Shown: positions 8,377-58,147, counted from the first letter of the stretch. The stretch: 64,000 nucleotides of DNA from Terriglobia bacterium (GCA_965218585.1 CBDCLE010000017.1:71470-135469), one strand, 5' to 3'. A program made the numbers and translations. The notes: generated by a model from the letters alone, not told the origin.

Positions 8377-9741
8377 GAGGTCGTTCCAATCGGTGTGTAA
8401 AAAGAGAAGGCGGTGTACGCTTTCGGTGAATCCGAAACCCTAAGCAATCCCGGCAGCAACCGGGAGAAAGGTACACCACCCATGAAGAAGAAGAACATAC
8501 CGGCATCAGTGGCGTCAACGAACGCGTATGAAGGTTTGGAGGACTGGGCGCGATCCCGGGTCCAAGTCTGGCTACAGGAGCTGCTCGAGGACGAAGTCAC
8601 TCAATTTCTGGGTCGGGAAAAGTCGGAGCGGAGTCCGAATCGACGAGGATACCGGAACGGTCACGGGAAGCCGCGACGCTTCGCAATGATGAACGGTACG
8701 ATGGAGGTTCGACGACCTCGGGTTCGAAACACCGCCGAGCGGTTCGAGAGTCAGATCCTGCCGTATTTTCGACGGAAATCGAAACAGCTGGGCGAGCTAC
8801 TTCCCGATCTCTACCTCCACGGTCTGGCCACAGGGGACTTCGAGCAGGCCATGCGCGGACTGCTTGGCGCTGGCGCTCCGTTGTCGCGAGCATCGATCCA
8901 ACGACTGAAATCGACCTGGCAGTTGGAGTATGACGAGTGGGTCCAGCAGGACCTGTCCGGCCTCGAGGTCGTGTACCAGTGGGCAGACAGCTTGTACGTG
9001 AAAGCGGGGATCGCGAAAGAGCGAGCGGCATTGCGGGTGATCATCGGAGCCTTGTCAGACGGGCGCAAAGTGGTGTTGGCCTGTGAGAGCGGGCAGCGGG
9101 AAAGCAAGGAGTCCTGGAGCCGCATTCTGCGCAATCTCCAGAGACGGGGCCTGAAGCTGGGACGGCTGACTGTCGCGGACGGTCACCTGGGCATCTGGTC
9201 CGCGCTGGCCGAGCAACAGCCCCAGGGCCAGGAACAACGCTGCTGGAACCACAAGTCGATCAACGTGGTCGATCATCTGCCGAAGACCGAGCAGCCCGCG
9301 GCCAGACAGCTGCTCCATGGGATGGCCTTCGCGAACTCCCGCGCGGCCTGCGAACGAAAGCGGGATCAGTTCGTCCGCCGATATGAGAAGAACTATCCCA
9401 AAGCGGGTGAGACGCTGTTGCGGGACTGGGACCGGATGATTACTTTCTATGAGTTCCCGAAACAACACTGGGTGCATCTGAGAACAACCAACATCGTCGA
9501 ATCGCCTTTCGACATGGTTCGCCTCCGTACCAACGCCGCTCGCCGATTCAAGCGTGTCGAGAATGCAACGGCAATGATCTGGAAGCTACTACGTGTCGCT
9601 GAGAAGGCTTGGCGACACTTAAAAGGATCCGAACTCTTACAAGAGGTCTATGATGGTCAGCAATTCGCTGACGGCATCAGAGTCGTGATGAAATCGAAGG
9701 CCGCCGCCTGATGACTTTTACACACCTTTTGTAATGACCTC
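8377..9741 (+). mobile_element. IS256-family insertion sequence, complete copy (1365 bp) with imperfect terminal IRs and an 8-bp target-site duplication GGATGAGG
   Basis: IRL GAGGTCGTTCCAATCGGTGTGTAAAAAG versus the reverse complement of IRR GAGGTCATTACAAAAGGTGTGTAAAAG (about 22/26 identical). GGATGAGG occurs at 8369-8376 and again at 9742-9749. The element encodes an IS256/mutator-type transposase. Confidence 0.85.
8482..9711 (+). CDS. IS256-family transposase
   Basis: Typical C-terminal IS256 motifs (DRMITFYEFPKQHWVHLRTTNIVESPF). It is about 99% identical to the transposase at 56901..58130. The MKKK start at 8482 is preferred to the upstream extension at 8413. Confidence 0.9.
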   Translation: MKKKNIPASVASTNAYEGLEDWARSRVQVWLQELLEDEVTQFLGREKSERSPNRRGYRNGHGKPRRFAMMNGTMEVRRPRVRNTAERFESQILPYFRRKSKQLGELLPDLYLHGLATGDFEQAMRGLLGAGAPLSRASIQRLKSTWQLEYDEWVQQDLSGLEVVYQWADSLYVKAGIAKERAALRVIIGALSDGRKVVLACESGQRESKESWSRILRNLQRRGLKLGRLTVADGHLGIWSALAEQQPQGQEQRCWNHKSINVVDHLPKTEQPAARQLLHGMAFANSRAACERKRDQFVRRYEKNYPKAGETLLRDWDRMITFYEFPKQHWVHLRTTNIVESPFDMVRLRTNAARRFKRVENATAMIWKLLRVAEKAWRHLKGSELLQEVYDGQQFADGIRVVMKSKAAA

Positions 9742-10284
9742 GGATGAGGACAGAGACCTTGTATCCCGATACCTGTCTGGAGATATGATCGCCTTTGACG
9801 AGTTGATGACCCGCCACGAAAGGCAGATCTACAGACTCTGCTTCCGGTTTGTGAAGAACCCGGAAGACGCCATGGATCTGACTCAGGAAGTCTTCATCAA
9901 GGCCTTTGAGAAACTCACTGCTTTCCGGGGGATGCCCGGTTCAAAACATGGTTGTATCGCGTTGCGGTCAATCATTGCCTGAACCACGTAAAGAAAAACT
10001 CCCGGGAGTTTGTCGAAGTCAACGAAAGTATTGGAAGCGTCGGTCCGTCTTCTCATAACAGACTGCTTGAGAGAGAACGGCGCGATATCGTAAAGCAGCT
10101 CATGGGGAACCTCCCTCCGAAGCAGAAGGCGATTCTCGAGCTGCGAATGAACGACAATCTGAGCTACGAAGAGATTGCAGGCATACTGGGACGATCGGTT
10201 TCGACGGTCAAATCCAGCGTCTTCTTCGCGCTCACCAAGCTCAAGAAGATGGTCGCCCAACAGGCGGCTGCAGGCCAAATGTGA
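9734..10284 (+). pseudogene. ECF sigma factor (sigma-70 family), disrupted
   Basis: Region 2 (DLTQEVFIKAFEKLTAFRG / FKTWLYRVAVNHCLNH) and region 4 (LSYEEIAGILGRSVSTVKSSVFFALTKLK) are recognisable. The native start ATG 8346 plus about 10 codons is separated from the body by the IS256 insertion. In addition, a -1 frame break in a G5 run near 9927-9931 splits regions 2.1/2.2 into the ORFs 9734..9982 and 9952..10284. Confidence 0.8.
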
Positions 10285-10333
10285 TCCAGGCGGTATGAAC
10301 CAAATAGCAGGGCTATAACACTGGCAGATAACA

Positions 10334-10972: not shown

Positions 10973-10988
10973 TAGAAGCCGCGCGACA

Positions 10989-13039: not shown

Positions 13040-13272
13040 ACGAGGCTCTCTTCTATCACGGGGTCCGACCCAACCAAAAACGTTTCCCGTATAGTGGATC
13101 AATCCCGAACAGGTAAACTAGTGATCTGTAGCACCCGTATCGGGCCCAGTGTTGCGGTCAAACGGCATTGGATTCTAGGAGTCACCGACGAGGAAATGCC
13201 CTGCATTGTGAGGAGCTGACGACAACGAAGACGATGCCATTTCGCAGCAATCGCTGGCAGATGGAGAGGCAG

Positions 13273-13806: not shown

Positions 13807-13843
13807 ATAATCGAGTTACAGCCTCGAGGAGATACGCCGCACC

Positions 13844-15601: not shown

Positions 15602-15604
15602 CGG

Positions 15605-20715: not shown

Positions 20716-20717
20716 AG

Positions 20718-21329: not shown

Positions 21330-21332
21330 CAG

Positions 21333-22097
21333 CTATCGGATGATCATGAACGTTCGGCCCCATCGTGTCTTGCGGAAGAAGTTCAATCCAAGATCCGCGA
21401 TCTGCCCCACCCGACTCCCTGCACCCGCCTCGAGATATTCGTCTGTGTCGGTTTCGTAGGACCAGTAGATGACCAGCGCCTTGCCGACGATGTCCGTCAT
21501 GGGGACGAATCCCCAGTAGCGACTGTCCGAGCTGTTGTCCCGGTTGTCGCCCATGGCGAAGTAGTGTCCTTCGGGCACCAGGATCTCATCGTCGACCATG
21601 TAGTCCTCATACCAGTACGGATCCTGATCCACACCTCCATAGCGCCGGCCGGGATGCGGCCTCGGGGGAAAATAGTCCCGGAACGGGTCTGCATAGGCGC
21701 CCGGTGGACTGATGTGCATCTTGTAGGGCTCGTTCAGGGGGCGATCGTCTACGAAAACCTGCTGCTCGATAATCCGAACGCGCTCGCCCGGAAGACCGAC
21801 CACCCGCTTCACGTAGTGTTTGGTGAGATCTCTTGGGTAGCGAAAAACGATGACGTCTCCTCGATCGACCTTGTTGAACGGAAGGACGGCATCGATCCAG
21901 GATCCTTCGTTTCCGAACGTAAACTTGTTGACAAGAAGATGGTCGCCGACAAGAAGGTTGTTTTCCATCGAAGGTGTGGGAATCTTGAACGCCTGGACGA
22001 TAAACGTCGTTCCGAAAAGCGCCAGAATCACCGTGATCACGAGTGACTCGAAGTATTCGCGGGCAGTTGATTTCGTGTAAGTCGGTTCGTCTGTCAT
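21333..22097 (-). CDS. lepB: signal peptidase I
   Basis: PTPSMENNL (catalytic Ser box), GDNRDNSSDSRYWG (box E), and an N-terminal TM segment. Confidence 0.9.
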   Translation of the reverse strand: MTDEPTYTKSTAREYFESLVITVILALFGTTFIVQAFKIPTPSMENNLLVGDHLLVNKFTFGNEGSWIDAVLPFNKVDRGDVIVFRYPRDLTKHYVKRVVGLPGERVRIIEQQVFVDDRPLNEPYKMHISPPGAYADPFRDYFPPRPHPGRRYGGVDQDPYWYEDYMVDDEILVPEGHYFAMGDNRDNSSDSRYWGFVPMTDIVGKALVIYWSYETDTDEYLEAGAGSRVGQIADLGLNFFRKTRWGRTFMIIR

Positions 22098-22272
22098 TCT
22101 GTTGCTCGAATCATCAGGCGGCCGGCCCAGGCCCGAATTCTCACTATATCGTTTCTGCTCAATTTGTTCCAGCTAAGAGACATACAGAGCAGGCCTTAGC
22201 GTAAGAATTCGGTGTTTCCGAGAACGAACAGCCTTTCGCTCGGTCGTTCAAACGGTCGTAAGAACCGACCAC

Positions 22273-22989
22273 TCAATCCCCATCCTTCTTCAACGCCTCC
22301 ATAGCCTGCATCGCCGCCGCCTGTTCGGCGGCCTTCTTAGTCAAGCCCCGGCCCCGGGCCAGACTCGAATTTCCGACAATGACCTCAACGATAAACAGTT
22401 TCTGGTGATCAGGACCCGCGGCTTCGATCAACTTGTAGTCGGCTGGCTTTTGGCCACGCGCCTGCAAGCCCTCCTGAAGTGCCGACTTGAAATCCGGAAC
22501 CTGGTCTGCGGCGTTCTCAACGTCTTCGATTTGAAGGGTGAAGAATCGAAGAATGACTTCCCTGACCCGATCCAGTCCACCATCGAGATAGATGGCCGCA
22601 ATGAGCGCTTCAAAGGCGTTTACCAACAGGGCCTGCTTCCGCCGGCCTCCGGTCTTCTCTTCACCCCTTCCCAGACGCAGATAGTGGCCCAACTGAATCT
22701 GCTCGGCACATTGAACGAGGTTCGCCGAACTCACAAGAAACCCCTTCAACTTGGACATCTGACCCTCGCTCAGATTCGGTTGTGCGCCACACAGAGCTTC
22801 GCTTACCAGAAATCCGAGGATCGAGTCACCCAGAAATTCGAGCCTCTCGTTGTCGTCCAGGGGGCCGAGATTGTTTTCGTGGGCGTATGAGCTGTGGGTC
22901 AGAGCCTGTTCGAGTAACTCGCGCCGGGCGAACCGGTAGCCCAGCGTCTGCTCTAGTTCATCCAGGTTCTTCATCGAATCAAAAGACAA
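22273..22989 (-). CDS. rnc: ribonuclease III
   Basis: RNase III signature ERLEFLGDS, and a C-terminal dsRBD. Confidence 0.92.
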   Translation of the reverse strand: MSFDSMKNLDELEQTLGYRFARRELLEQALTHSSYAHENNLGPLDDNERLEFLGDSILGFLVSEALCGAQPNLSEGQMSKLKGFLVSSANLVQCAEQIQLGHYLRLGRGEEKTGGRRKQALLVNAFEALIAAIYLDGGLDRVREVILRFFTLQIEDVENAADQVPDFKSALQEGLQARGQKPADYKLIEAAGPDHQKLFIVEVIVGNSSLARGRGLTKKAAEQAAAMQAMEALKKDGD

Positions 22990-22997
22990 TGGACCGC

Positions 22998-24512
22998 TCA
23001 GAAATCACAGCCGGGACCGAACGCCTGATCGACACCCTGGGCAGCAGCTCCCTGGGCTCCCTGAGTGTCGTCACCAACTTCGAGCGCAGACCGGTACTGC
23101 TGGACGGCCGCCTCGCGTTCGCACTGAAGATCGTAAATCCGTCCGAGATAGATATGAGACCACACGCGCATCGATGGTTCTGCACTCTGACTGTCCAGTG
23201 TGCGACTGAAGTACTCACTTGCCAGGAGGGGGTCTCCTTCCCGGCTGACGATCAGGGCCAGACCGTAAAGCGCCGGTCCATTGGAGGGATCGTACTCGGC
23301 CAGCACACGTTCAAAAGCGGATCGAGCGGCGTCATCTTCTCCGGCATTAAAGGCTTCCTGTGCCTCGCGCAAAACGCCCGGGATCGGATCGACCACGGGC
23401 GGTGCGGGCGGCACCTCTGCGGGCCTGATCTCTTCAACGACGAAAGGAATCGAATAAAACTGTTCCTCGAACCGGGCGATTTCGACGTCGACGTCGACCG
23501 AGGCCAGCATGTCGGGAAAGAAATTGCGAATACCGACTTCAGAAGTTTCGTATTCCAAGAGTCGTTCATGAAAAAACGGCACCAGCAGAAGCCCGCTCCG
23601 GTAAGCTGTGTCTATGACGGCATCGAGGTCGGTAACCGGGTCGTCCATGCGCAACTCCACAGCCCGAATCAACGATTCCGCGACCTGTATTTCGAAATCG
23701 TCGGCATAATCGGGTCGGACACCGTCGACCGCACCGATGAGTGACGTCAAGCGCTCTTCCCTCGACAGCTCAACTCTCTCACGAGCCACGATCGGATCCA
23801 GTAGCAGGTGCAGGTATGCGTGTCTGACGTCTTCTACTCGGGGAACGGTGGAGTCGCCCAGCACAATATAGAGATTCTCAGGGTAATTCCGCACGTTGAC
23901 GCTGTTGATCGGGGCCGCAAGTTCGAGAAAAATCACCAGCTGCCTGGGACCGGTCTGACCGAAGGGCCTTCTCACATAAGCGTCGCTCTGGAGAATCGTA
24001 TCCCGTATCGGAGGTCCCATCTGGTCGAGAGCCTCATCGTAACTGGGACCGAGCGCAGACCACAATTGGGTGATCCGGGCGGTATCATAGAATTCACGGA
24101 GCAGCGGAAGAAACCCTTCAAGTTCACGGGCGTCGGGCGGAATGAAGTCTTCGTCAAAGGCAAATTCCAGCGTCGGTGGGTCGGTCAGATTCAGGGCGAG
24201 CGAAAGGTATTTCGCAAGTTGAGTCTCGTCCAGATCACCTGCTCTGTGCTGGTCATAAAACTCACGGAGACGACGGACAAGGTCAGGATCCACTGTCCCT
24301 ACCGCGTCACGCATCTGTTGGCGGACCGGATGATACCGTGCGGCCAGTTCAACGTCGAAACCTGCGGCATTCAGAGCGGCGACCACGGAGAAAACCCTGA
24401 CATCGCGATCAATTACGGCGGTAACACCCTGCGCATGGGCGGCAGCGCTGCCAAGCCCCAGGCATAGGCAAACTACTAACCCAAGCTGTTTACGCAACAT
24501 GCAAAGCATCAT
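22998..24512 (-). CDS. secreted hypothetical protein with a C-terminal TPR-like region
   Basis: Signal peptide MMLCMLRKQLGLVVCLCLGLGSAAAHAQG at the internal Met. A ~400-aa unknown domain is followed by a TPR-like C-terminus. First gene of the hyp-rnc-lepB-hyp co-directional string. Confidence 0.5.
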   Translation of the reverse strand: MMLCMLRKQLGLVVCLCLGLGSAAAHAQGVTAVIDRDVRVFSVVAALNAAGFDVELAARYHPVRQQMRDAVGTVDPDLVRRLREFYDQHRAGDLDETQLAKYLSLALNLTDPPTLEFAFDEDFIPPDARELEGFLPLLREFYDTARITQLWSALGPSYDEALDQMGPPIRDTILQSDAYVRRPFGQTGPRQLVIFLELAAPINSVNVRNYPENLYIVLGDSTVPRVEDVRHAYLHLLLDPIVARERVELSREERLTSLIGAVDGVRPDYADDFEIQVAESLIRAVELRMDDPVTDLDAVIDTAYRSGLLLVPFFHERLLEYETSEVGIRNFFPDMLASVDVDVEIARFEEQFYSIPFVVEEIRPAEVPPAPPVVDPIPGVLREAQEAFNAGEDDAARSAFERVLAEYDPSNGPALYGLALIVSREGDPLLASEYFSRTLDSQSAEPSMRVWSHIYLGRIYDLQCEREAAVQQYRSALEVGDDTQGAQGAAAQGVDQAFGPGCDF

Positions 24513-24573
24513 AGCATGTGGGGGGCATGAAGAGTCATGAGGGGTCGGACCCCATGGGACCGGTACGCTAAAG

Positions 24574-25431
24574 ATGAACTTCGGCATTTCAACCTATGCT
24601 TTCGGCGACGAGGAAATTTCCCCCCGGCTCCTGGATCACCTTCTCCGGGCGGGCTTCACGCGGATCGAACTATTTGCCAACCGCCCGCACTGGAACTACC
24701 ACGACAGAGGCCTCACAAAAGAACTGGCCCGATGGTTTCAGACCAACGATGTCGAGCCTCCGTTCCTGCATCTTCCGTTCTTCGAACAAAAAGGAAAAGG
24801 CGACGTTCGACCGATCTCAGCATTGGCAAACAACGAACGCGACCGGAAACACGCTATCGACGAAGTCAAGCGGGCACTCGAATTCACGGACCTGCAATCT
24901 GTAGCTCACGTCGTCGTGCACCTGGGTGTGCCCCGGCAGGAGTTCACTCCTCTCCTGTTCGAGCATGCATACGCTCTTATGCGACATATTTCGGAATTTG
25001 CCGGCGTAAACATCGTTATAGAAAACATCCCGAACGAAATATCGACGATAGAACGCATTGCCGAGTTCCTGAATGTGTCCCAACTTCCCGAGATTCGAAT
25101 CTGCTACGATACCGGCCACGGGCGCCTTCAGGGTCCGCTTCCCCAACTGGATGGAGTTGCCCAGATTCACCTCAGTGACAACAACGGCAGCCTGGACGAC
25201 CATCTGTGGCCGTTCGAAGGACAATTAAACTGGCCCGAGTTCGTCCGAGAACTTGTAAGATCAGGCTTTGCGGGCCCGATGGTGTTCGAAGCACTGAATC
25301 CGGACGTCGATCGCGGCCGGGAAGCTCGAAGCCGTTTGCAAGATTTGATCGACGAGGCGAGTCGGTCGGACGAGGAGTTTGCTAGAAAATACCGGCTGGA
25401 CCTGAACAACGATGACAACGACCTACATTGA
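24574..25431 (+). CDS. sugar phosphate isomerase/epimerase (xylose isomerase-like TIM barrel)
   Basis: Typical AP-endo2/XylA-like TIM-barrel sequence ([10 protein letters not shown]..., HLG..., ENIP..., TGHG). Confidence 0.7.
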
Positions 25432-26713
25432 AGATATCGGCAAGCACGTCGGCCAAGAAGTAACCGTTCGTGGTTGGCTTCACAATAAACGTTCGAGCGG
25501 AAAGCTCCGCTTTCTCATCGTTCGCGACGGTACGGGCTACATACAGGCCGTCGTCTTCAAGAAAGCCGTACCGGAAGAAACTTTCCAGGCCGCAACCGAT
25601 CTGACCCACGAGTCTTCGTTCACGGTAACGGGAACTGTTCGAGCCGACGAACGGGCACCCGGCGGGCACGAAATGGATGTCACCGCTATCGAGGCACTTC
25701 AGATCGTAGGGGCGGAGGAAGAATTCCCGATCACACCCAAGGAACACGGCATCGAGTTCCTTATGGACCACCGCCATCTCTGGATTCGTTCCAGGCGCCA
25801 ACGTGCAATCCTCAAGGTCCGGCACGAAATCATCCGCGCTGCGCGCGACTTCCTCGACGACGATGGGTTCACGCTCTGCGACACGCCCATCCTGACCCCG
25901 GCAGCCTGCGAAGGAACGACGACGCTTTTCGAGGTGGACTACTTTGACGAAAATGCCTTCCTCGCTCAATCGGGACAACTTTATGGCGAGGCTACTGCAG
26001 CGGCCCTGGGTAAGGTCTACAATTTCGGTCCCACCTTCAGGGCCGAAAAATCGAAGACGCGTCGTCATCTGACCGAATTCTGGATGGTCGAACCCGAAGT
26101 GGCCTACGCCACGGTAGAAGACATGATGGACCTCTCAGAAAGATACATCAGTCACATCGTCGGGCGTGTCCTCGATCGCAGAGGAGAAGAACTCAATGAC
26201 CTCGAGCGCGACGTATCTACTCTCGAGAAGATTTCCCCGCCGTTCCCCCGTATTTCCTACGACGAGGCCATCGAGATTCTTCAGAAAAACGGTTCAGAAA
26301 TTCAATGGGGAAGCGATTTCGGAGGAACGGACGAGACGATCCTGTCCGAACACTTTGAAAAACCTGTCCTGATCCACCGGTATCCGTCGGCGATCAAGGC
26401 CTTCTACATGGAACCAGACGCCGAAAGGCCCGAAGTTGCCCTGTGTCTGGACGTTCTGGCGCCGGAAGGTTACGGGGAGATCATCGGCGGGGGGCAACGA
26501 ACCGCCAACCATCAACTCCTTCTCGAGCGAATCGAGGAGCACGATCTCCCACGAAAGGATTTCGAGTGGTACCTGGATTTGAGGAAGTTCGGATCGGTAC
26601 CCCATTCCGGATTTGGAATGGGAATTGAACGCGTGGTCGCGTGGATCTGCCGTCTGGATCACGTGAGGGAAACAATCCCTTTTCCGCGGATGCTCTACAG
26701 GCTGAGCCCATAG
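25412..26713 (+). CDS. asnS: asparagine--tRNA ligase (class IIb aaRS; an Asp-type cannot be fully excluded)
   Basis: 433 aa, N-terminal OB anticodon-binding domain, class II motifs ([19 protein letters not shown]). Confidence 0.65.
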
Positions 26714-26726
26714 CCGTACTCTTACA

Positions 26727-26800
26727 CTGACGCCTCGGCTTCGCCTCGTTGTCCACCCGCACCGGAGGCCGGTGCGGGTCCTCCCCCTTGGTCAAAGTAT
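26727..26800 (+). repeat. ~75-nt intergenic repeat element, copy A (conserved 30-nt 5' block plus GC hairpin); copy B is at 32330..32400
   Basis: Both copies share ctgacgcctcggctYcgcctcgttgtccac, followed by a hairpin. Copy A is cccgcaccgg-agg-ccggtgcggg. Copy B is cctgcaccc-tcggaa-gggtgcggg, with compensatory changes and a wobble. Confidence 0.6.
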
Positions 26801-27077
26801 CGATGAGTCCTGAAAGGGCTTCCAATCAGTATGATTGCGTGGGGGGACCGGACCGGCATTCGAGTTCCCGAGCAACATCGAATCGCGAAAAGGTCAGTGC
26901 ACTCTCGACGGTTTGGGTTATTGGGGGACGGTGGGCCCGGCGCTAATGACGTCAGCGAGCTGCGCCGGTCGTTCGGCCACGATGGCCGTCTGAACAACCG
27001 AGCGCAATCTTTCAGCCAACGGGGAGGGGCCTCCATCTCTAAGCGTCGACCGAAGGACGAGTGGCAACTCTCGGAAT

Positions 27078-27100
27078 GGACAGAGCTGTCCGCCCCTTTT
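27078..27100 (+). terminator. Rho-independent terminator-like hairpin + T-run (GGACAGAGCUGUCC GCCCCUUUU)
   Basis: 6-bp GC stem ggacag/ctgtcc with a 3-nt loop, followed by gcccctttt. It sits about 365 nt downstream of the asnS stop and abuts the convergent coaE stop. Confidence 0.5.
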
Positions 27101-27101
27101 C

Positions 27102-49820: not shown

Positions 49821-52268
49821 CTATCGCAAGCGATCGGCAATCCCCTCCACGGTTGTGACCAGTTCTCGAAATCTGGTCTGTGTGGCGCCACTTCGACCGT
49901 CGCCCTCCTGGGCAAGCGCCCCAGCCACTGTTTCGAGTTGGTCCGCCACCGCGCGGTCGTTCCCCCCACTCGCCAGCGCATTTTCGGCGCCGTCGAGCGC
50001 GGCGGTCAGCGCTCCTGCCTGCGCCGCTGAAACGACGTTACTTCGGAGGAGCTGGTCCAGATACGCCCGTGCGACCACTGGCTCGGCCGGCCAGGTGTTC
50101 CGCCGTTGTGTCTGTGCGTTGACCACAGCATCCGGGTCCCTGAGCGATGCCGCTGCTATTTCGTTTTCGGTCAGATAATCGCTGGGGACCAGGGCCAACA
50201 CATCGAGACCGCGTGCGATTTCGGTGCCATAGATGAATCCACCGAACCAGTAGGCTGACCAATACCCACCCATGACAAGGTCATCGCCATTGATCGGACC
50301 ACGGTCAAAAAAGGCGATTTCGACCGGGTTCGCGGAGTCGGTAAAATCGATGACCGATATGCCTCCCTGGTACCAGGCCTGAACGAAAATGTCCCGACCG
50401 GGGACGGGTATGAGCGAGCCATTGTGAGCCACACAGTTTTCCTGGTCGCTCTGTGGCGCCGCCATCTTGTAGTGGCTCCGAAACTGCAACCGTCCATTGA
50501 CGATGTCGTAGATTGCATCCGCACCCCAATCCAACGGATCGGACGCGCGGCAACGCGGGCGGCCCCCGCCTCCCCATTCATCGGTAAAAAGCACTTTGGT
50601 TCCATCGTTGTTGAAAGTCGCGGAGTGCCAGTAGGCAAAGCCGGGATCGACCACCTGATCCAAACGGACCGGATTCACCGGATCGCTGATATCAAGAAGG
50701 ATTCCGTTGCCAGAGCAGGCACCGGCGGCCAGGCCAATCTCGGGGAAAGTCGTGATGTCGTGGCACTGATTGGTCAACCGTGTGGTCTGTGTGCCCTCCC
50801 CGTGATCGCCGCCTTCCCACAAACCTGCGATAACCCCCGAATTCGGGTCCGAGAATATGCGGGGGCGATTGATGATGCGGGCCTCCGCGGGTCGCGCCAC
50901 AGGAATCTCGATCACGTCGATACTGAACAGTGCGGTCTCGGCATCTTCAAAGGGTGATTCGTCTGAACAACCGTCGAGCTCCTCACTGGAACGGACCGAG
51001 CCGGTTCCTGACCCATAGACGTAGATGATTCCTTCATCGTCAGGGTCAGTCACGATGGTATGGGTATGGGAACCCCGGCAGGTCTGAACCGCCCCAACCT
51101 GACGAGGCGCTCGCAAGTCGCTGATGTCGAAGATTCGGATACCCCGGAAGCGATCTTCGCTTTCCGGTTCGGCGACTCCCTCGAGGCCACAGTCGAGCCG
51201 CCCCCTGGTTTGCTCGGCCGAATATATCAGGAGATTTCCGACTACCGACACATCGCCCTGTCCGCCCGGGCATACGACCGAACCAAGCAGCTCGGGTGAA
51301 CTTGGATTCACGATGTCGTAGGCATTGAATCCGTGATAATTCCCTGCAATGACGACATCACCTGCAAAGGCCAGGTCACTGTTGGCAAAGTTAAGGAGGC
51401 TGGGCCGTACCTGATCCTCTTCTTCGCCGTCCTCGGCCTCCGCACCCGGCGGTCTACGGGGTACACCCTCGGGGTTTTCCGGATCGAAGAACCCATTCGG
51501 CTTGGGAAGGGCGATGACCAGTTCCATGTTCAGAGAAGCCTGACCCGCATCGTCGAATCCAGCCGCCAGATTGACTCTCGGGTCGGGAGAGAAGCCTGCC
51601 AGCATGGCGTTCATGCGGTCGATTTCACTCGTCTGGTCCGAGGTGATGTCCGATGTAAATGCGAACAGCACCGAGTCCTGTGCCGAGCCTTGTTGATCAA
51701 GGAGATTCTCGACCATCGTCAGGGCGCCTGCGTGATGCTTGATCATGAGTTCAAGAAACAACGAGTCAAACTCAAATCCGTCGGCTTGCTCCAGCTGTTC
51801 TAACTCCTCGTTGGTCAGCATTCCCGGCATCAATCGAAATCCTGGAGCCTGATGAGCATCCTCGGCAGTCACGACGAGGCCCCGGTCACGCAACCAGCCC
51901 TGCATCATGTCGATTTCATCCTCCTGCGAGAGTTCTATGCGCTCGGACAGAAGTTGCATGACTTCGCGGTTACTCCGCTCCTCAACCAGGACAGTCATCT
52001 CCAAAGCCTGGGCATGATGGGAGATCATCCCTTGCATGAACCTCGCGTCGGCCTCGGTAAACTGGATGCTCGCCAGGTCTCCGGCCTCTTCGGCCGAAAT
52101 CTTCCGGCTCGCTTCCCCGGGTGCACCAGGCTGAATGATCGGTGCCTGGGCGGAGCTTTCCGTGACGGCGAACAGACCCAGGGCGGTGATGACTGCTATG
52201 TGAGCAGCCAGACGAAATACGAAGGACGGCAGGCAAGTCATAAGGTTCTCTCCAACAGGGTTTTTCAT
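49821..52268 (-). CDS. large secreted multidomain protein: tandem DUF305 (HHxxA four-helix metal-binding) domains + beta-propeller-like repeats + C-terminal Ala-rich helical domain
   Basis: Signal peptide. MISHHAQALEM and MIKHHAGALTM (DUF305 signature, twice). A long Gly/Asp-rich beta region follows. The C-terminus is AYLDQLLRSNVVSAAQAGALTAALDGAENALASGG (FIMAH-like). Confidence 0.55.
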   Translation of the reverse strand: MKNPVGENLMTCLPSFVFRLAAHIAVITALGLFAVTESSAQAPIIQPGAPGEASRKISAEEAGDLASIQFTEADARFMQGMISHHAQALEMTVLVEERSNREVMQLLSERIELSQEDEIDMMQGWLRDRGLVVTAEDAHQAPGFRLMPGMLTNEELEQLEQADGFEFDSLFLELMIKHHAGALTMVENLLDQQGSAQDSVLFAFTSDITSDQTSEIDRMNAMLAGFSPDPRVNLAAGFDDAGQASLNMELVIALPKPNGFFDPENPEGVPRRPPGAEAEDGEEEDQVRPSLLNFANSDLAFAGDVVIAGNYHGFNAYDIVNPSSPELLGSVVCPGGQGDVSVVGNLLIYSAEQTRGRLDCGLEGVAEPESEDRFRGIRIFDISDLRAPRQVGAVQTCRGSHTHTIVTDPDDEGIIYVYGSGTGSVRSSEELDGCSDESPFEDAETALFSIDVIEIPVARPAEARIINRPRIFSDPNSGVIAGLWEGGDHGEGTQTTRLTNQCHDITTFPEIGLAAGACSGNGILLDISDPVNPVRLDQVVDPGFAYWHSATFNNDGTKVLFTDEWGGGGRPRCRASDPLDWGADAIYDIVNGRLQFRSHYKMAAPQSDQENCVAHNGSLIPVPGRDIFVQAWYQGGISVIDFTDSANPVEIAFFDRGPINGDDLVMGGYWSAYWFGGFIYGTEIARGLDVLALVPSDYLTENEIAAASLRDPDAVVNAQTQRRNTWPAEPVVARAYLDQLLRSNVVSAAQAGALTAALDGAENALASGGNDRAVADQLETVAGALAQEGDGRSGATQTRFRELVTTVEGIADRLR

Positions 52269-52395
52269 CATGGAATTCTTCGAAAGACGCATTTGCACCG
52301 GGGCACCGCGATGTATTGCGATAAATTGCATCCCAGTCAAAGATTGAGACAAAGCGTCGGGATCCGGTTCATGTAATCACGAGCCGCCTGGGCTT

Positions 52396-53547
52396 TTAAT
52401 CGGCCGGTTCCAGGCGAACCACAGACGTCGTCTCGCCACCGCGATCGTCGATGGCCACGTAGATGTAACCGTCGGGTCCCTGGTGGAGGTCCCGGATACG
52501 GCCGTTTCCGTGAAAGAGCGTCTCCTCATGAACGACACTCGTGTCTTCGGTGACAAGGCGCGCGATCTGTTCGCCTGCCATACCGCCTGCGAACATGTTC
52601 CCTTTCCACTCAGGAAAGCGGTCGCCGGTATAAACCATCAGGCCAGAAGTGGCGATTGACGGAACCCAGACATGTACGGGTGACTCCATGCCCTCGCGCC
52701 GCGTACCCTCGTGAATCGCCAGGCCGCTCCCATAGTTGACGCCGTAACCGATGACCGGCCAACCGTAGTTCAAGCCCCTCTGCACCAGATTGAGTTCGTC
52801 GCCACCCTGCGGTCCGTGCTCGGTAATCCAGACGTCGCCGGTCTCGGGGTGGACGACCAGCCCCTGAGGATTGCGGTGCCCGTAGCTCCAGATCTCGGGA
52901 CGTGCGCCGGGGGTATCGACAAAGGGATTGTCCGACGGAACACGCCCGTCGTCATGCAACCTGACGACCACCCCGTGATGGTTCGAAATGTCCTGGGCGG
53001 GATGCGCCATAAGGTCGCCCGTTGCCGGGGCCTGACGCTCACCAACGGTGATGAAAAGGTAGCCGTCACCGTCGAAAGCAAGCCGCGAACCGTAATGCCC
53101 GCGTCCGCGCGATGCGGCCTCGAAAATCTCCTCGACGTTTGTCAGGCGATCATCTTCGAGGCGGCCGCGCACGACAGCCGTGGTCGACTCACCCTCGGGC
53201 AGTGGCTTTGAGAAGCTCAGGTAGAGCATCTGGTTCGATGCAAAGTCGGGATGGAGCGCTATGTCGAGCAGCCCGCCCTGTCCCTGGGCGAAGACTTCCG
53301 GAACACCGGCCACGGGATCGGCAAGGAGTTGCCCGTACCGGACGATTCGCAGCCGGCCGGGACGTTCGGAGATCAGGATGTCTCCGTCAGCAAGCGCCGC
53401 GACCGACCACGGGTTCAAGAGACCCTCCGCCACGGTGACGACGCGATAATCGTGGTCGGTTGACCGCATGAGGGGTGATTGGGCAAACGCCTGTGTCACG
53501 GCGACGAACACGAAAAGCGTCGCCAGTGCCCAGAATGTACGACTCAT
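52396..53547 (-). CDS. PQQ-dependent sugar dehydrogenase (soluble aldose sugar dehydrogenase YliI-like)
   Basis: Signal peptide, 6-bladed propeller motifs, and characteristic GLLNPWSVAAL, HHGVVVRL and YGHRNPQGL segments. Confidence 0.75.
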   Translation of the reverse strand: MSRTFWALATLFVFVAVTQAFAQSPLMRSTDHDYRVVTVAEGLLNPWSVAALADGDILISERPGRLRIVRYGQLLADPVAGVPEVFAQGQGGLLDIALHPDFASNQMLYLSFSKPLPEGESTTAVVRGRLEDDRLTNVEEIFEAASRGRGHYGSRLAFDGDGYLFITVGERQAPATGDLMAHPAQDISNHHGVVVRLHDDGRVPSDNPFVDTPGARPEIWSYGHRNPQGLVVHPETGDVWITEHGPQGGDELNLVQRGLNYGWPVIGYGVNYGSGLAIHEGTRREGMESPVHVWVPSIATSGLMVYTGDRFPEWKGNMFAGGMAGEQIARLVTEDTSVVHEETLFHGNGRIRDLHQGPDGYIYVAIDDRGGETTSVVRLEPAD

Positions 53548-53773
53548 GAAGATCTCCTTTTGGCCGTTGGGCCTCGTGACTCGGATGGAAGGGACCAAAC
53601 CTATCCCCTCCAGGGGACTCGCCTACCTTGAACTACGCCGGGAGCAAAGCCCCAATAGCTTATATCACCACGAATCTGTTGCAAATCAGGAATCGACCCG
53701 GGCCCTCAGATCGTTCTTCGCTTCTCCAGCGCTGTGTGCGGATGGGAGACACGATGTCGTGGTTCCACAGACT

Positions 53774-54145
53774 TCATACGTGCTGATCAACCAGGATCGG
53801 ATTTCCGTCCGGGTCCAGGGCGATGAAACTTGCCGGCCCGGTGGTGGTCTCGTCCGCCTCGGCAAGTAATGGTACGCCTTGCGCCTTCAACTGGCGCTGA
53901 AGGTCGCGCACGTCGGTAAACGTAGCGAGTTCGCCGGCGTTGCTGTCCCAGCCCGGATTAAAGGTCAGCGTATTCTTTTCGAACATGCCCTCGAAGAGAC
54001 CTATGGCGTGATCACCGTTCTTCAGGATCAGCCAGTTCTCGGAGGCCTCTCCGGCAAAAACCTTGAAGCCGAATTTTTCGTAGAAAACCTTCGAAGCCTG
54101 GAGATCGGTGACGGCCAGGCTGATCGAAAATGTGCCGAGTTCCAT
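53774..54145 (-). CDS. VOC family protein (glyoxalase/bleomycin-resistance fold)
   Basis: 123 aa with a beta-alpha-beta-beta-beta pattern (FSISLAVTDLQASKVFYEKFGF...DPDGNPI). Confidence 0.7.
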   Translation of the reverse strand: MELGTFSISLAVTDLQASKVFYEKFGFKVFAGEASENWLILKNGDHAIGLFEGMFEKNTLTFNPGWDSNAGELATFTDVRDLQRQLKAQGVPLLAEADETTTGPASFIALDPDGNPILVDQHV

Positions 54146-54215
54146 ATGTGCTCCTTAGTTGCGGCCGGCTTGCCGGCCGACACAAGAATCGGTTTGTAGC
54201 TATGACAATAGCGAA

Positions 54216-56067
54216 TCAATGCGAAGGCGCAGTTTCGATTTTTACGGCCGGTCCGACATGTTCGGGCTCCCGGATCTGATCGACCAGGTCGCGTGTAGCG
54301 GAACTCGGAGGCGGGAAAAACCCTGTAAGCCCAAGGGTGACGGCAAAGTTCAGCATCATGCCGACCGACCCGATCCCCTGCGGGTCGATCCCGTTCGTGA
54401 ACAATCCGAAGGTCCAGCGGTCCATTCCAAAGAAGACAGTCGCGATGATGTAAAACGCGGTGAAGGAAATCCCTGCGATCATGCCCGCAACTGCCGGAAC
54501 GGTTCCAACCCGTTTGCTGAAGATACCCAGAACGATCGCCGGGAAAAAAACTGGCTGCCGCCAGACCAAAGGCAAAAGCGACGACCTGGCTGACAAACCC
54601 GGGTGGATAGATGCCGAAGATTCCCGCGATAACGACGGCAACACCGATGACTCCACGTCCAACCCTCAGGCGTTGGGCTTCGCTGGCTTCGGGCCGCAGG
54701 ATCCGAAAATAGAGGTCGTGAGCGACACTGGAGGAGATCACCAGCAGAAGACCGCTCGCCGTCGAAAGTGCAGCCGCGAGACCTCCAGCCGCAACAAGCG
54801 CAATGATCCAGTTCGCCAGCTCGGCCATTTCAGGCGTTGCAAGAACGATGATATCCCTGTCGGGCCCGGAGAGTCCGGCGTCCCTCAAAGCGATTCTTGC
54901 ATCCAGACCGGCCGTGCCTCCGGTGTCGAGCCACTGTTGATGCGAAGCTCTGAGCGAAGCCAGTTCCGCTGTGGCCAACGTTCCGTTACGGAAGACCTCG
55001 TTATCCTCGCCCGCAGCATAGAGAACCTGCCCGTCGCCGTTATCGAGCCATAGAATCAGACCGGTCCGTTCCCAGTTCTCGAACCACTCGGGTAGCTCTT
55101 CAGCCCTCTGCCCATTCAGGCTGTCGATCATGAAGTAACGCGCAAATGCGGCGGTTGCCGGGGCCGTCAGGTACAGCATCGAAATAAAGAAAAGCGCCCA
55201 AAACGCACTCCACCGCGCAGCCTTGACCGACTTGACCGTGTAAAAACGGACGATCACATGAGGCAGGCCTGCGGTGCCCACCATCAGGGCCAGAGCAACC
55301 AGAAAGACGTTGACCTTGTCCCAACCTCCGACGAACGTATCCGTGTAGGCTGCAAAACCCAGATCCGTATGTATCTGATTCAGTCGTTCCAACAGGTAGA
55401 CGCTGGTTCCATCATCCGCGCCGATCAGTTCGCCTCCAAGGCCAACCTGGGGCAGCAGATCTCCGGTCAGTCGGATACTAATTGCGATTGCGGGTATGAG
55501 AAAGGCCGTGATCAGGACCCAGTATTGGGCCACCTGCGTCCAGGTTATTCCCTTCATGCCGCCGAGCGTCGCGTAGACAAAAACGATCGCCATGCCGATG
55601 ACGACACCCACGTTGATATCCACTTCCAGAAAACGGCTGAAGACCACGCCCACGCCGCGCATCTGTCCGGCGACATAGGTGAACGAGATAAAGATGGCAC
55701 AGACCACTGCGGTCATTCGTGCCACGTTCGATTCGTAGCGATCACCGATGAAATCCGGAACCGTGTAGTGTCCGAACTTTCTCAGGTATGGGGCGAGCAG
55801 GAGGGCCAACAGGACAAACCCTCCGGTCCAGCCCATGAGATAGATCCCTCCCGCATATCCCATGGTCGAGATCAGGCCCGCCATCGAAATGTACGACGCG
55901 GCGCTCATCCAGTCCGCTGCGGTGGCCATTCCGTTCGCACCGGCAGGCACTCCCTGTCCGGCGACGTAAAAACCCCTGGTGTCGGTGACACAGCTCAACC
56001 AGGCGATCGTCAGATAGAGACCAAAGGTGAGGCCGACGAAGAGGTAGGTCCAGCCCTGTACGCTCAT
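54216..56067 (-). CDS. sodium:solute symporter family transporter (cation/acetate ActP-like), frame broken in an A7 run near 54541-54555
   Basis: SSF TM topology and motifs. The N-terminal ~500 aa are in frame 54028..56325 from Met 56067, and the C-terminal 148 aa are in ORF 54216..54662. Repairing one base in the A7/T7 run gives ...GLAAASFFPAIVLGIFSKRVGTVPA... Confidence 0.8.
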
Positions 56068-56381
56068 CGGGCATCTCCACGGCGGCTCTCGTCGATCTCC
56101 CGGTGGTGTGCAGCATCCAGCCGATTCATCAAGAGGCAGTAAACGAGGATGAGGAGAACAAAGGCGATAATGCTGCCCTGTTGCGCAAACCAGAATCCGA
56201 GTGGATATCCGGTTCCGGGAAGCCTGTAGGTGTTCAGCACGTCGGCGAAAAGGACGCCGGCCCCCAGTCCCGCCAACGCCCAACCGAAGAGAAGAGTGAC
56301 CATGATGCGCACGTTGCGCCGCCAATACGACTGGAGCAGTGTTCTGGTGTCGGGTTTCGCCTGTGGGGATTCAGCGTTCAT
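56064..56381 (-). CDS. DUF4212 small membrane protein (putative solute:sodium symporter small subunit)
   Basis: 105 aa, two TM helices, always found upstream of ActP-like symporters. Its stop overlaps the symporter start (ATGA). Confidence 0.7.
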   Translation of the reverse strand: MNAESPQAKPDTRTLLQSYWRRNVRIMVTLLFGWALAGLGAGVLFADVLNTYRLPGTGYPLGFWFAQQGSIIAFVLLILVYCLLMNRLDAAHHREIDESRRGDAR

Positions 56382-56504
56382 GGGGATCAGAAAAGCGCTG
56401 CGATTCTATCGGAGGGGATTAGCAAGGTCAACGGACACGTGAGACTCCGATTGCTTCCAACTTCTTAGTTCTACTATCATTTGCCAAGAAGGAGGCCGGG
56501 ATCG

Positions 56505-56870
56505 TTGACAGATCGAAAAACCCTCGAATCTCTCGACTTAGAAGAAATCTATGAGACAGCACCCGTGGGCTTGTGCGTCTTTGATACGGACGTTCGGTAC
56601 GTTCGCATCAACCGATACCTGGCAGCGATCAACGGCAAACCGGCTTCCGAACACGTTGGTCGATCGATTGAGGAAATGGCGCCCGAGGTGGCACCCACGG
56701 TGACACCGATGATCAAGAAGGTAATCGACACGGGTGAGCCGGTCTTCAATTGGGAAGTCATCAAACGAACGAACACGGGCGATTCTGAAACAGCTCAAGT
56801 TTTCCTTTGCACTTACCACCCACTCAGGACAGTCGACGGCGAGATAGTTGGCATTTCGTCTGTTGTGCAG
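56505..56870 (+). pseudogene. PAS-domain signalling protein, 3'-truncated by IS256 copy 2
   Basis: PAS fold (APVGLCVFDTDVRYVRINRYLAAINGKPASEHVGRS...). A strong RBS AAGGAGG lies 9 nt before TTG 56505. The ORF runs into the IS end at 56871 and terminates inside the IS. Confidence 0.7.
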
Positions 56871-58147
56871 GAGGTCATTACAAAAGGTGTGTAAAAGTCA
56901 TCAGGCGGCGGCCTTCGATTTCATCACGACTCTGATGCCGTCAGCGAATTGCTGGCCATCATAGACCTCTTGTAAGAGTTCGGATCCTTTTAAGTGTCGC
57001 CAAGCCTTCTCAGCGACACGTAGTAGCTTCCAGATCATTGCCGTTGCATTCTCGACACGCTTGAATCGGCGAGCGGCGTTGGTGCGGAGACGAACCATGT
57101 CGAAGGGCGATTCGACGATGTTGGTCGTTCTCAGATGCACCCAGTGTTGTTTCGGGAACTCATAGAAAGTAATCATCCGGTCCCAGTCCCGCAACAGCGT
57201 CTCACCCGCTTTGGGATAGTTCTTCTCATATCGGCGGACGAACTGATCCCGCTTTCGTTCGCAGGCCGCGCGGGAGTTCGCGAAGGCCATCCCATGAAGC
57301 AGCTGTCTGGCCGCGGGCTGCTCGGTCTTCGGCAGATGATCGACCACGTTGATCGACTTGTGGTTCCAGCAGCGTTGTTCCTGGCCCTGGGGCTGTTGCT
57401 CGGCCAGCGCGGACCAGATGCCCAGGTGACCGTCCGCGACAGTCAGCCGTCCCAGCTTCAGGCCCCGTCTCTGGAGATTGCGCAGAATGCGGCTCCAGGA
57501 CTCCTTGCTTTCCCGCTGCCCGCTCTCACAGGCCAACAGCACTTTGCGCCCGTCTGACAAGGCTCCGATGATCACCAGCAATGCCGCTCGCTCTTTCGCG
57601 ATCCCCGCTTTCACGTACAAGCCGTCTGCCCACTGGTACACGACCTCGAGGCCGGACAGGTCCTGCTGGACCCACTCGTCATACTCCAACTGCCAGGTCG
57701 ATTTCAGTCGTTGGATCGATGCTCGCGACAACGGAGCGCCAGCGCCAAGCAGTCCGCGCATGGCCTGCTCGAAGTCCCCTGTGGCCAGACCGTGGAGGTA
57801 GAGATCGGGAAGTAGCTCGCCCAGCTGTTTCGATTTCCGTCGAAAATACGGCAGGATCTGACTCTCGAACCGCTCGGCGGTGTTTCGAACCCGAGGTCGT
57901 CGAACCTCCATCGTACCGTTCATCATTGCGAAGCGTCGCGGCTTCCCGTGACCGTTCCGGTATCCTCGTCGATTCGGACTCCGCTCCAACTTTTCCCGAC
58001 CCAGAAATTGAGTGACTTCGTCCTCGAGCAGCTCCTGTAGCCAGACTTGGACCCGGGATCGCGCCCAGTCCTCCAAACCTTCATACGCGTTCGTTGACGC
58101 CACTGATGCCGGTATGTCCTTCTTCTTCATGGGTGGTGTACCTTTCT
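56871..58147 (-). mobile_element. IS256-family element, second copy (inverted relative to copy 1), missing about 88 bp of its left end including IRL
   Basis: Right end GAGGTCATTACAAAAGGTGTGTAAAAG is identical to copy 1. Identity to copy 1 stops 20 nt upstream of the transposase ATG (at 58147). No target duplication can be assessed. Confidence 0.8.
56901..58130 (-). CDS. IS256-family transposase (copy 2, ~99% aa identity to 8482..9711)
   Basis: Same protein as copy 1, with about 5 substitutions (e.g. EKSERS>EKLERS, ADSLYVK>ADGLYVK). Confidence 0.9.
   Translation of the reverse strand: MKKKDIPASVASTNAYEGLEDWARSRVQVWLQELLEDEVTQFLGREKLERSPNRRGYRNGHGKPRRFAMMNGTMEVRRPRVRNTAERFESQILPYFRRKSKQLGELLPDLYLHGLATGDFEQAMRGLLGAGAPLSRASIQRLKSTWQLEYDEWVQQDLSGLEVVYQWADGLYVKAGIAKERAALLVIIGALSDGRKVLLACESGQRESKESWSRILRNLQRRGLKLGRLTVADGHLGIWSALAEQQPQGQEQRCWNHKSINVVDHLPKTEQPAARQLLHGMAFANSRAACERKRDQFVRRYEKNYPKAGETLLRDWDRMITFYEFPKQHWVHLRTTNIVESPFDMVRLRTNAARRFKRVENATAMIWKLLRVAEKAWRHLKGSELLQEVYDGQQFADGIRVVMKSKAAA

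Follow-up and report, generated by a model that had tools for sequence, protein, structure and literature searches.

In the 64,000-nt stretch of a soil Acidobacteriota (Terriglobia) genome analysed here (the window), two near-identical 1.4-kb mobile-element copies lie in opposite orientation. We propose, with a probability of about 0.6, that the second of these (copy 2) is an immobile remnant seated on a genome-rearrangement breakpoint and that the first (copy 1) is a plain insertion in an ECF sigma-factor gene (Table 1). Overall, this is ordinary mobile-element wear and tear, and the broken copy opens no new biological question. The value of the locus is for annotation and assembly: (i) the ends, inverted repeats (IRs) and target duplication are now defined for an IS256-family element found widely among long-read Terriglobia MAGs; (ii) three pseudogenes, those of the ECF sigma factor, the PAS kinase and the phosphoesterase, are flagged.

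Table 1. Coordinates of the features discussed, counted from the first nucleotide of the window
Feature	Position	Strand	Evidence and remarks
IS copy 1, complete, 1365 bp	8377..9741	+	IRL 8377-8402, IRR 9716-9741; end-to-end matches in L002-L006
Copy 1 transposase gene, 409 aa	8482..9711	+	PF00872 E=8e-60; NF033543 272 bits
Left target duplication of copy 1, GGATGAGG, 8 bp	8369..8376		Direct reading; identical to 9742-9749
Right target duplication of copy 1, GGATGAGG, 8 bp	9742..9749		Direct reading
ECF sigma-factor gene, split by copy 1 after codon 10 (codon 10/11)	8346..10284	+	Sigma70_r2 and r4_2 matches
Extra 10.6 kb in the sister assembly	47005..47011		Coordinate offsets and junction sequences; flanked by CCGCATT/CCGGATT, 7-bp near-repeats
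Multi-PAS hybrid histidine kinase gene, 5' fragment (first PAS domain)	56481..56870	+	PAS_4 E=3e-18; cut at the IS IRR
IS copy 2, 1277-bp remnant (IS nt 89-1365)	56871..58147	-	IRR intact at 56871; IRL and 88 bp gone
Copy 2 transposase ORF, intact, 409 aa	56901..58130	-	5 aa differences from copy 1
PlcC/AcpA-type phosphoesterase gene, 5' fragment (~185 codons)	58148..58702	-	ORF continues into copy 2 at its truncated end
Fic-domain gene and M10/astacin-type metallopeptidase gene, accessory	59067..61559	+	Pfam; on the side of the breakpoint without synteny
Another IS256-family element, distinct from copies 1 and 2, 1386 bp	61998..63383	-	9-bp duplication ACTGACGTC at 61989-61997 and 63384-63392

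The element and its complete copy

A repeat search of the window returned a single inverted pair (8465-9741 and 56871-58147) of 1277 nt, whose arms are 99% complementary and stand 47,129 nt apart; pairwise alignment of the two copies over this length gives 11 mismatches and no indels (99.1% identity), a likeness far beyond chance. The boundaries of the element, its IRs and its 8-9-bp target duplications were taken from many independent copies, the boundaries being fixed by more than 30 full-length ones. End-to-end matches to positions 1-1365 at 95-98% identity are present in five other Terriglobia MAGs (L002-L006), many more copies match at 82-86%, and partial copies occur at the MAG loci L044, L045, L049, L053, L059 and L060. 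So delimited, the element is 1365 bp long and codes for a single transposase in one 409-aa ORF. Its termini, IRL (GAGGTCGTTCCAATCGGTGTGTAAAA) and IRR (GAGGTCATTACAAAAGGTGTGTAAAA), are imperfect 26-bp inverted repeats (22/26 positions matching), and its target duplications measure 8 bp in copy 1, L004, L015, L021 and L029, and 9 bp in L007. Across copies the transposase matches the Pfam model PF00872 of Mutator/IS256-type DDE enzymes (E=1e-60 to 8e-60, that of copy 1 being scored on a longer GTG-start ORF, 8413-9711) and reaches 272-274 bits against the NCBIfam model NF033543, 'IS256 family transposase', for which the cut-off is 150.

The element hence combines a DDE transposase, a length within ~1.2-1.5 kb with a single ORF, imperfect terminal IRs and an 8-9-bp duplication, the features by which the IS256 family is recognized; the prototype, IS256 of Staphylococcus/Enterococcus, likewise has one DDE ORF, ~26-bp imperfect IRs and 8-9-bp target duplications. 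In a scan of genome contigs with the transposase the best match (98% identical) was again from another Terriglobia MAG, and the nearest plasmid-borne relative, from Allomeiothermus silvanus, is 54% identical at the protein level; at 82-98% nucleotide identity, the element has so far been seen only in Terriglobia MAGs. By these sequence features it is a new, unnamed member of the known IS256 family, representing a distinct lineage. The earlier note on this DNA had assigned both copies to IS256 and described them as a ~99%-identical inverted pair, and the profile matches and the alignment bear out both statements. It had also called copy 1 complete, which is likewise confirmed by matches to positions 1-1365 in other MAGs, both IRs and the 8-bp duplication.

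The gene split by copy 1 carries a further lesion, a -1 frameshift in a G5 run (9927-9931). When 8377-9749 is removed and one G is added, a single 189-aa ECF sigma ORF is restored. The same 82-aa split call for this gene is found in a second assembly (ENA ERZ25067264 ctg830538, 99.94% identical). Copy 1 would then be a plain and fairly recent insertion into the 5' end of the ECF sigma gene. Look-ups of exact products matched for the shorter ORFs with clear starts; no such record was returned for the copy 1 transposase, the ABC transporter, the Fic ORF or the GAF/SpoIIE gene, probably as a result of start-codon or single-base differences.

The truncated copy and its two junctions

By alignment, the first IS nucleotide left in copy 2 is nt 89, at window position 58147, nt 1-88 being absent. 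Because it has no IRL, it cannot transpose and is predicted to be immobile. It resembles other truncated IS remnants and mini-IS/MITE derivatives in its 5' truncation but differs from them in that, though immobile, it retains a full-length transposase ORF (ATG at 58130, stop at 56901), the exact product of which is on record on three contigs.

On one side, the complete IRR of copy 2 abuts the kinase gene at 56870/56871. The PAS ORF (start 56481/56505) reads through this point and ends at 56894, so that its native ...SSVVQ is followed by seven IS-encoded residues (EVITKGV) and a stop inside the IRR. In the related locus L067 (94% nucleotide identity) the orthologue, 80% identical at the amino acid level, runs ~2.3 kb further and goes on as PAS-PAS-HisKA-HATPase-REC, whereas the fragment in the window comprises one PAS domain only, without the HisKA and HATPase_c domains of a full-length hybrid kinase after it. 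Homology between the window and L067 ends at 56875, at most 4 nt from the IS end: L067, where the target is not interrupted, has GTTGTGCAG followed by GACGTAACC, and the window at the same point has GTTGTGCAG followed by GAGGTCATT.

On the other side, the phosphoesterase ORF (58702-58127, minus strand) consists of ~185 native residues and six IS-encoded ones, and its TGA (58127-58129) forms the overlap ATGA with the transposase start codon. This fragment covers positions 1-143 of the 356 of PF04185, short of a full-length catalytic domain, and aligns to residues 14-176 of the 494-aa solved homologue NPC4 (PDB 8hav); no homologue more than 51% identical was found in the protein databases searched. 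The earlier note had read copy 2 from its sequence as lacking about 88 bp including IRL, with a PAS gene running incomplete into one IS end and a phosphoesterase cut at ~185 aa at the other, and each of these points holds against the alignment, the L067 orthologue and the phosphoesterase models, respectively.

Beyond the phosphoesterase fragment, the Fic and M10 genes have no counterpart in any relative's locus compared, and the base composition of this side has no island signature (GC 0.56-0.58 against 0.57 overall). Homology-facilitated integration anchored on the second IS256-family element was considered and is ruled out by that element's own perfect 9-bp duplication.

The transposase ORF came through the truncation of copy 2 intact, as did its ribosome-binding site, and both now lie co-oriented directly behind the phosphoesterase 5' fragment. 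This arrangement, together with the ATGA overlap, raises the thought that copy 2 might serve as an immobile, host-promoter-driven source of transposase acting in trans on copy 1 and on mini-IS-type derivatives, which we regard as improbable. A scan for promoters and terminators around copy 2 gave no more sites than shuffled sequence did.

Gene order and the origin of the breakpoint

The gene order of relatives indicates what should lie beyond the kinase. In L067 the kinase gene directly abuts ETF-QO, which is followed by fabF, acpP, fabD and plsX. The ETF-QO and fabF-acpP-fabD-plsX-rpmF cluster is conserved in L067, L022 and L073; in the latter two ETF-QO adjoins DNA other than the kinase. The next block in L073, folD-coaE-asnS-...-rnc-lepB, is syntenic with window 21336-28902, and L073 is without the IS pair. 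Hence, the likely ancestral order, as judged from one close relative (L067, itself mosaic relative to the window on the other side) and two distant ones, would be fab/ETF-QO, kinase, SSF block and folD block. By tblastn, the remainder of the kinase, ETF-QO, the fab genes and the phosphoesterase C-terminus are absent from the window and from the source-contig loci L001, L071 and L072, and in the other ~1.2 Mb of loci compared the hits were limited to low-level resemblance of kinase domains (31-38%) and to the L022 fab/ETF-QO cluster. The cluster is also absent from the 4.7 kb beyond the window, and the far side of copy 2 is free of acpP and fabD for at least 10 kb. A protein search with the L067 ETF-QO gave nothing above 74% identity in an index that is incomplete for these samples and did not return L067's own protein either. 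The JGI data covered by the protein searches yielded no close relatives. Since the ETF-QO/fab DNA expected beyond the kinase is absent there, copy 2, as far as these relatives tell, is a synteny breakpoint.

We advance the following plausible course of events. In the first step, which the sequences show directly, the IS inserted into the kinase gene just after the first PAS domain, giving the precise IRR-target junction at 56870/56871. At the second junction, 58147/58148, IS nt 89 is fused to about codon 185 of the unrelated phosphoesterase gene; as this lies inside the IS (nt 88/89) and not at an end, it was evidently not made by the transposase. Classical IS-adjacent deletions keep the IS end intact, and a transposase-made adjacent deletion, which would have kept the IRL, is ruled out. 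The second step would therefore be a non-transposase joint that cost copy 2 its IRL and promoter-proximal 88 bp, and the kinase gene its 3' 2.3 kb. Whether one event or several, this was most likely a rearrangement by which the ETF-QO/fab side was moved elsewhere, and it might have taken one of two routes: (i) inversion or translocation by homologous recombination with another IS copy situated within the phosphoesterase gene, after which the IRL end was slightly eroded; or (ii) a single illegitimate recombination. Type II fatty-acid synthesis cannot do without two genes of the cluster, acpP and fabD, and the absence of such a cluster after the kinase makes a rearrangement with a non-transposase junction appear more likely than a plain deletion. 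The earlier note had left the choice between IS-associated deletion and rearrangement undecided and was right to invoke such an event; the relatives' gene order tips the balance toward rearrangement.

The strongest competitor, which we nevertheless hold to be rather unlikely, is a single local deletion from IS nt 88 through the 3' part of the kinase gene, and whatever DNA lay between, into a phosphoesterase gene that was just downstream in the immediate ancestor, with nothing relocated. With one insertion and one deletion it is the most economical in events, and the phosphoesterase/Fic/M10 block, being without counterpart in relatives, leaves its ancestral position unconstrained. However, in L067 the kinase directly abuts ETF-QO, with the fab genes next, L022 and L073 keep the fab/ETF-QO cluster as well (there next to DNA other than the kinase), and the essential acpP and fabD are missing from the far side over at least 10 kb. 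Microhomology-type deletions do occur in the same population, which also speaks for a local deletion: the second assembly differs from the window by a 10.6-kb indel, and within the extra DNA lies a 680-bp mini-copy of the 1365-bp IS (nt 1-466 and 1152-1365), with both IRs kept, a fresh 8-bp duplication (GATACGGA) and its internal deletion joined at a CG microhomology, comparable to non-autonomous mini-IS/MITE derivatives. The 10.6-kb indel, 10 kb from copy 2, is another illegitimate event in this population and, with the internally deleted IS copy, also fits the non-transposase joint of the course proposed above. Window 47-63 kb, rich in IS elements, is structurally plastic: two near-identical strains already differ there by 10.6 kb.

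That the boundary of copy 2 is false, with two loci or strains joined through the repeat or a repeat collapsed during assembly, we consider very unlikely. Both assemblies are low-coverage metagenome contigs ('4x' and '2.67x' in their names) with homopolymer indel errors, and copy 1 in the second assembly has copy 2 bases at two sites, which could be read cross-talk. Against this, a chimeric join through a repeat would give a complete IS, and the break at nt 88/89, lying where unique sequence passes into the repeat, must exist in the reads; moreover, the copy 2 junctions are identical in two assemblies, perhaps built from the same reads, between which there are SNPs and the 10.6-kb indel, and records from two contigs (P0001, P0011) contain the two fusion products, IS-encoded tails included.

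The interval between the copies

Tn4001 is a composite transposon in which inverted IS256 copies flank the cargo, and the window likewise has two inverted, 99%-alike IS256-family copies bracketing the intervening DNA. Unlike Tn4001, the pair in the window encloses 47 kb of conserved housekeeping genes, lacks one outer IR, includes a copy (copy 1) with a duplication of its own, and cannot be mobilized as a unit. Among these genes NCBIfam models identify uvrB, rnc, asnS and thrC, and Pfam identifies lepB, all five named in the earlier note; folD and coaE are also present. A composite transposon, which it had thought unlikely, is more firmly excluded on this structure because the IRL that copy 2 lacks would have been its outer terminus.

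For inversion, the prerequisite of inverted homologous copies of at least 300 bp is present (1277 bp, 99.1% identical), and because they share this length in inverted orientation, copy 2 should still be able to recombine with copy 1. The earlier suggestion that the pair might invert the 47 kb is therefore sound as to potential but not as to occurrence: the matching duplication of copy 1 and the single ECF sigma ORF rebuilt across it show that the interval has undergone no net inversion. Neither exchanged flanks nor mismatched duplications are seen, and the second assembly has the same orientation.

A large-scale precedent is Staphylococcus aureus OC8, in which oppositely oriented IS256 copies mediated a megabase inversion and deletions (PMC5065196). 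As in the window, oppositely oriented IS256-family copies there lie in an IS-rich 'hot spot', and IS copies sit at rearrangement breakpoints, with flanking 8-bp repeats that no longer match. In contrast to OC8, no inversion has taken place between the two copies in the window, the duplication of copy 1 being intact, and the breakpoint copy is truncated inside the element, which homologous recombination between full copies cannot give. Despite these parallels with Tn4001 and OC8, it is hardly credible that the pair forms a functional unit, either as a composite transposon with the 47 kb as cargo or as a segment programmed to invert, given the deleted outer end of copy 2, the sole insertion of copy 1 implied by its own duplication, a cargo whose order is common to L073 without the IS pair, and one orientation with unexchanged copy 1 flanks in both assemblies. 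The 1277-bp inverted repeat nonetheless constitutes a standing substrate for a 47-kb inversion, by which no further genes would be disrupted.

Two copies of an IS256-family element

The repeat search recovered one long inverted repeat in the window, with arms (8465-9741 and 56871-58147) of 1277 nt that are 99% complementary and 47,129 nt apart, and pairwise alignment of the two copies found 11 substitutions and no indels, confirming the inverted pair of ~99%-identical IS256 copies described in the earlier note. The limits of the element were set from other genomes through a transposase scan of species-representative genomes, which yielded 65 loci, mostly from a few long-read MAGs of Terriglobia (Acidobacteriota). 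Over window 8377-9741, positions 1-1365 align end to end at 95-98% identity in loci L002-L006 and at 82-86% in about 25 further loci. The termini, GAGGTCGTTCCAATCGGTGTGTAAAA and GAGGTCATTACAAAAGGTGTGTAAAA, are identical at 22 of 26 positions, and independent copies are flanked by target duplications of 8 bp (9 bp in one). Both transposases match PF00872 (E about 1e-60) and the NCBIfam model NF033543 'IS256 family transposase' (272-274 bits; cut-off 150), which bears out the family assignment, and the closest plasmid-borne relative is only 54% identical. The 1365 bp constitute an unnamed IS256-family element, new within a known family.

Copy 1 is complete, as first supposed, spanning the full 1365 bp between matching duplications. 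Excising it with one repeat puts the ATG at 8346 in frame with the downstream Sigma70_r2/r4 ORFs, and adding one G to the G5 run (9927-9931) after that excision yields a single 189-aa ECF sigma factor. Given the matching duplication and the rebuilt ORF, copy 1 is a simple insertion following codon 10 of an ECF sigma gene, and its flanks have never been exchanged since. The -1 frameshift in the G5 run, which divides the sigma gene 3' of copy 1 and gives the same split gene call in a second (sister) assembly, represents either a genuine second lesion, in a gene that the IS had already broken, or a systematic error at the homopolymer. At window 8989 and 9035, copy 1 of the sister assembly has the copy-2 bases, shared with all other genomes, rather than those of window copy 1; the two copies may have undergone gene conversion, the strains may differ there, or reads of the copies may have become mixed in assembly.

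Insertion sequences and associated features (window coordinates unless a locus is named; L075 lies in the sister assembly)
Feature	Coordinates	Strand	Remarks
IS copy 1, complete	8377-9741	+	end-to-end matches in other genomes
Target duplication GGATGAGG	8369-8376 and 9742-9749		flanks copy 1 on both sides
IS copy 2, remnant starting at IS nt 89	56871-58147	-	IRR complete; IRL and 88 promoter-proximal bases absent
Copy 2 transposase ORF, 409 aa	58130-56901	-	intact; 5 aa differences from copy 1
Second, different IS256-family element, 1386 bp	61998-63383		9-bp duplication ACTGACGTC at 61989-61997 and 63384-63392
Internally deleted IS copy, 680 bp	L075 4323-5002		nt 1-466 joined to 1152-1365; both IRs; 8-bp duplication GATACGGA

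The two junctions of copy 2

The alignment of copy 2 to copy 1 begins at IS nt 89, in keeping with the reported lack of ~88 bp including IRL. On the IRR side, a PAS-domain ORF reads ...SSVVQ, then seven IS-encoded residues, then a stop. The same gene is uninterrupted in L067, a metagenome contig of a close relative 94% identical to window 49775-56433: its target reads GTTGTGCAG followed by GACGTAACC, where the window has GTTGTGCAG followed by GAGGTCATT, and nucleotide homology between the two stops no more than 4 nt from the IS end. In L067 the gene, a multi-PAS hybrid histidine kinase, runs ~2.3 kb further through more PAS domains, HisKA, HATPase_c and a receiver domain (this being a 2.67x contig in which frameshifts divide the kinase into several gene calls). 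On the truncated side, a PlcC/AcpA-type phosphoesterase reads into the IS after about 185 codons; the fragment covers PF04185 positions 1-143 of 356 and aligns with residues 14-176 of a 494-aa solved homologue. The neighbours are hence both incomplete, as the earlier note had it, neither being full-length. The kinase-IRR junction has the precision that transposition produces, so the kinase gene was the target of the insertion. At the other junction the break falls within the element, and it was therefore made by something other than the transposase; classical IS-adjacent deletions leave the IS end intact.

The stop of the phosphoesterase fragment overlaps the copy-2 transposase start on the same strand (ATGA, 58127-58130), so the promoter of the fragment could drive the transposase, and the arrangement allows transcripts to read through, perhaps with translational coupling as well. 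A role for copy 2, itself immobile, in supplying transposase in trans is speculative and quite improbable. Between the DUF4212 gene and the kinase gene, L067 has ~396 bp (9535-9930, against window 56433-56435) with a 68-aa ORF call, where the window is almost empty.

Synteny and the origin of the truncated junction

In L067, the kinase is followed by convergent ETF-QO, fabF, acpP, fabD, plsX and yceD. The distant locus L073 has yceD-rpmF-plsX-fabD-acpP-fabF-ETF-QO, then folD-coaE-asnS-...-rnc-lepB, the latter block being syntenic with window 21336-28902. In L022, also distant, the same fab/ETF-QO cluster recurs and an 82% variant of the 1365-bp IS comes next. These gene orders suggest fab/ETF-QO, kinase, DUF4212-SSF block, about 20 kb and folD block as the likely ancestral arrangement. 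In the window, the fab side of copy 2 is replaced by the phosphoesterase fragment, a Fic gene, an M10/astacin peptidase, the second IS256-family element and hypothetical genes, with PQQ dehydrogenase and arylsulfotransferase genes within the 4.7 kb past the window. Tblastn found no match to the kinase remainder, ETF-QO, the fab genes or the phosphoesterase C-terminus in the window or the extra source-contig sequence.

Copy 2 probably marks a genome-rearrangement breakpoint (probability about 0.6), upholding the earlier proposal of an IS-associated deletion or rearrangement. After the IS had inserted into the kinase gene, it may have recombined with a further copy situated in the phosphoesterase gene, with slight erosion removing IRL, or one illegitimate recombination may have sufficed. 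A plain local deletion in an ancestor unlike L067 is less likely. As acpP and fabD are essential, a simple deletion starting from an L067-like order is unlikely, and the fab side has probably moved elsewhere. An assembly artefact at the copy-2 boundary is very improbable, as a chimeric repeat-mediated join is expected to leave a whole IS, whereas the break lies within the element, and identical junctions and fusion ORFs recur in a second assembly. Fusion proteins including the IS-encoded tails are recorded on two contigs, one of 269 kb and one of 136 kb. The latter (ENA ERZ25067264 ctg830538, the sister assembly) is 99.9% identical to the window, from which it departs by two larger indels, homopolymer indels and a few SNPs; copy 1 occupies the same site in it, and the junctions of copy 2 are identical. 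IS remnants of this kind, left at a rearrangement breakpoint and flanked by pseudogenes, are routine.

The 82% IS variant of L022 (7903-11260, MAG CBDCFM01) lies ~330 bp downstream of ETF-QO, the kinase position in L067; IS insertions or rearrangements may recur at the ETF-QO boundary. In another Terriglobia MAG (L068 10001-10657, CBDCKF01), the orthologous PAS gene (69% identity) is short at 218 aa, its resemblance to the L067 kinase ending within the second PAS domain, with a protein kinase gene next; this sensor kinase gene may have suffered an independent truncation there.

Inversion, plasticity and other repeats

The two copies are a good substrate for homologous inversion. In Staphylococcus aureus OC8, IS256 copies lying in opposite orientation gave rise to a 1-Mb inversion (PMC5065196); the window shares oppositely oriented IS256-family copies with that strain but bears no trace of a completed inversion between them, the copy-1 duplication matching, the sigma ORF being rebuilt and the orientation being the same in both assemblies. 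The composite transposon, earlier held unlikely, can be excluded more firmly: copy 2 has lost the IRL that would form its outer end, a separate duplication flanks copy 1, and the cargo is housekeeping in conserved order, with uvrB, rnc, asnS and thrC recognized by NCBIfam and lepB, folD and coaE by Pfam.

The 1386-bp element is separated by 3.85 kb from copy 2, on the side of its truncated end; its transposase matches NF033543 with 306 bits, and several loci of Terriglobia MAGs carry the element at 88-96% identity. At window 47005-47011, the sister assembly has 10.6 kb extra, bounded by CCGCATT/CCGGATT (from coordinate offsets; L075 1-7535, L071 21126-21230); the 7.5 kb over which its content was read encodes a Ser/Thr kinase (Pkinase)-PD40 protein, hypothetical proteins and a DDE_Tnp_1 transposase. 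Either the window strain lost this DNA by a short-homology deletion or the sister strain gained it by insertion. The same 7.5 kb contains the 680-bp copy, a non-autonomous mini-IS whose first 466 nt are 100% identical to copy 1. Together, the indel and the mini-IS show that IS decay, and probably short-homology deletion, occur in the population, in line with how the copy-2 junction is proposed to have arisen.

Single-base indels separate the assemblies at 54544, 60177, 60502, 63649, 13292, 14910, 15541, 18049 and 18368, mostly in short homopolymer runs; the one at 54544 puts the SSF transporter gene out of frame in the window alone. Sequencing error is the probable cause, which counsels caution on apparent frameshifts in the window. 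At 2522-2535 the sister assembly (L072 1275-1546) is ~260 bp longer, within or beside a hypothetical gene.

A conserved ~110-nt element has two inverted copies, 13140-13250 (+) and 27853-27985 (-), upstream of an hpt-like PRTase gene and of coaE, and further copies at 76-81% identity occur in several loci of Terriglobia MAGs, two of them in L026. Its predicted fold is a long imperfect hairpin with compensatory changes at 6 of 33 pairs; a search against Rfam gave no match even at E<=1, and a repetitive extragenic element and a structured RNA are both candidates for its nature. A 42-nt direct repeat, 90% identical, lies at 26722-26763 and 32334-32375, and two other loci (L017 and L034) also match these sites by blastn over ~60 nt at 85-90% identity.
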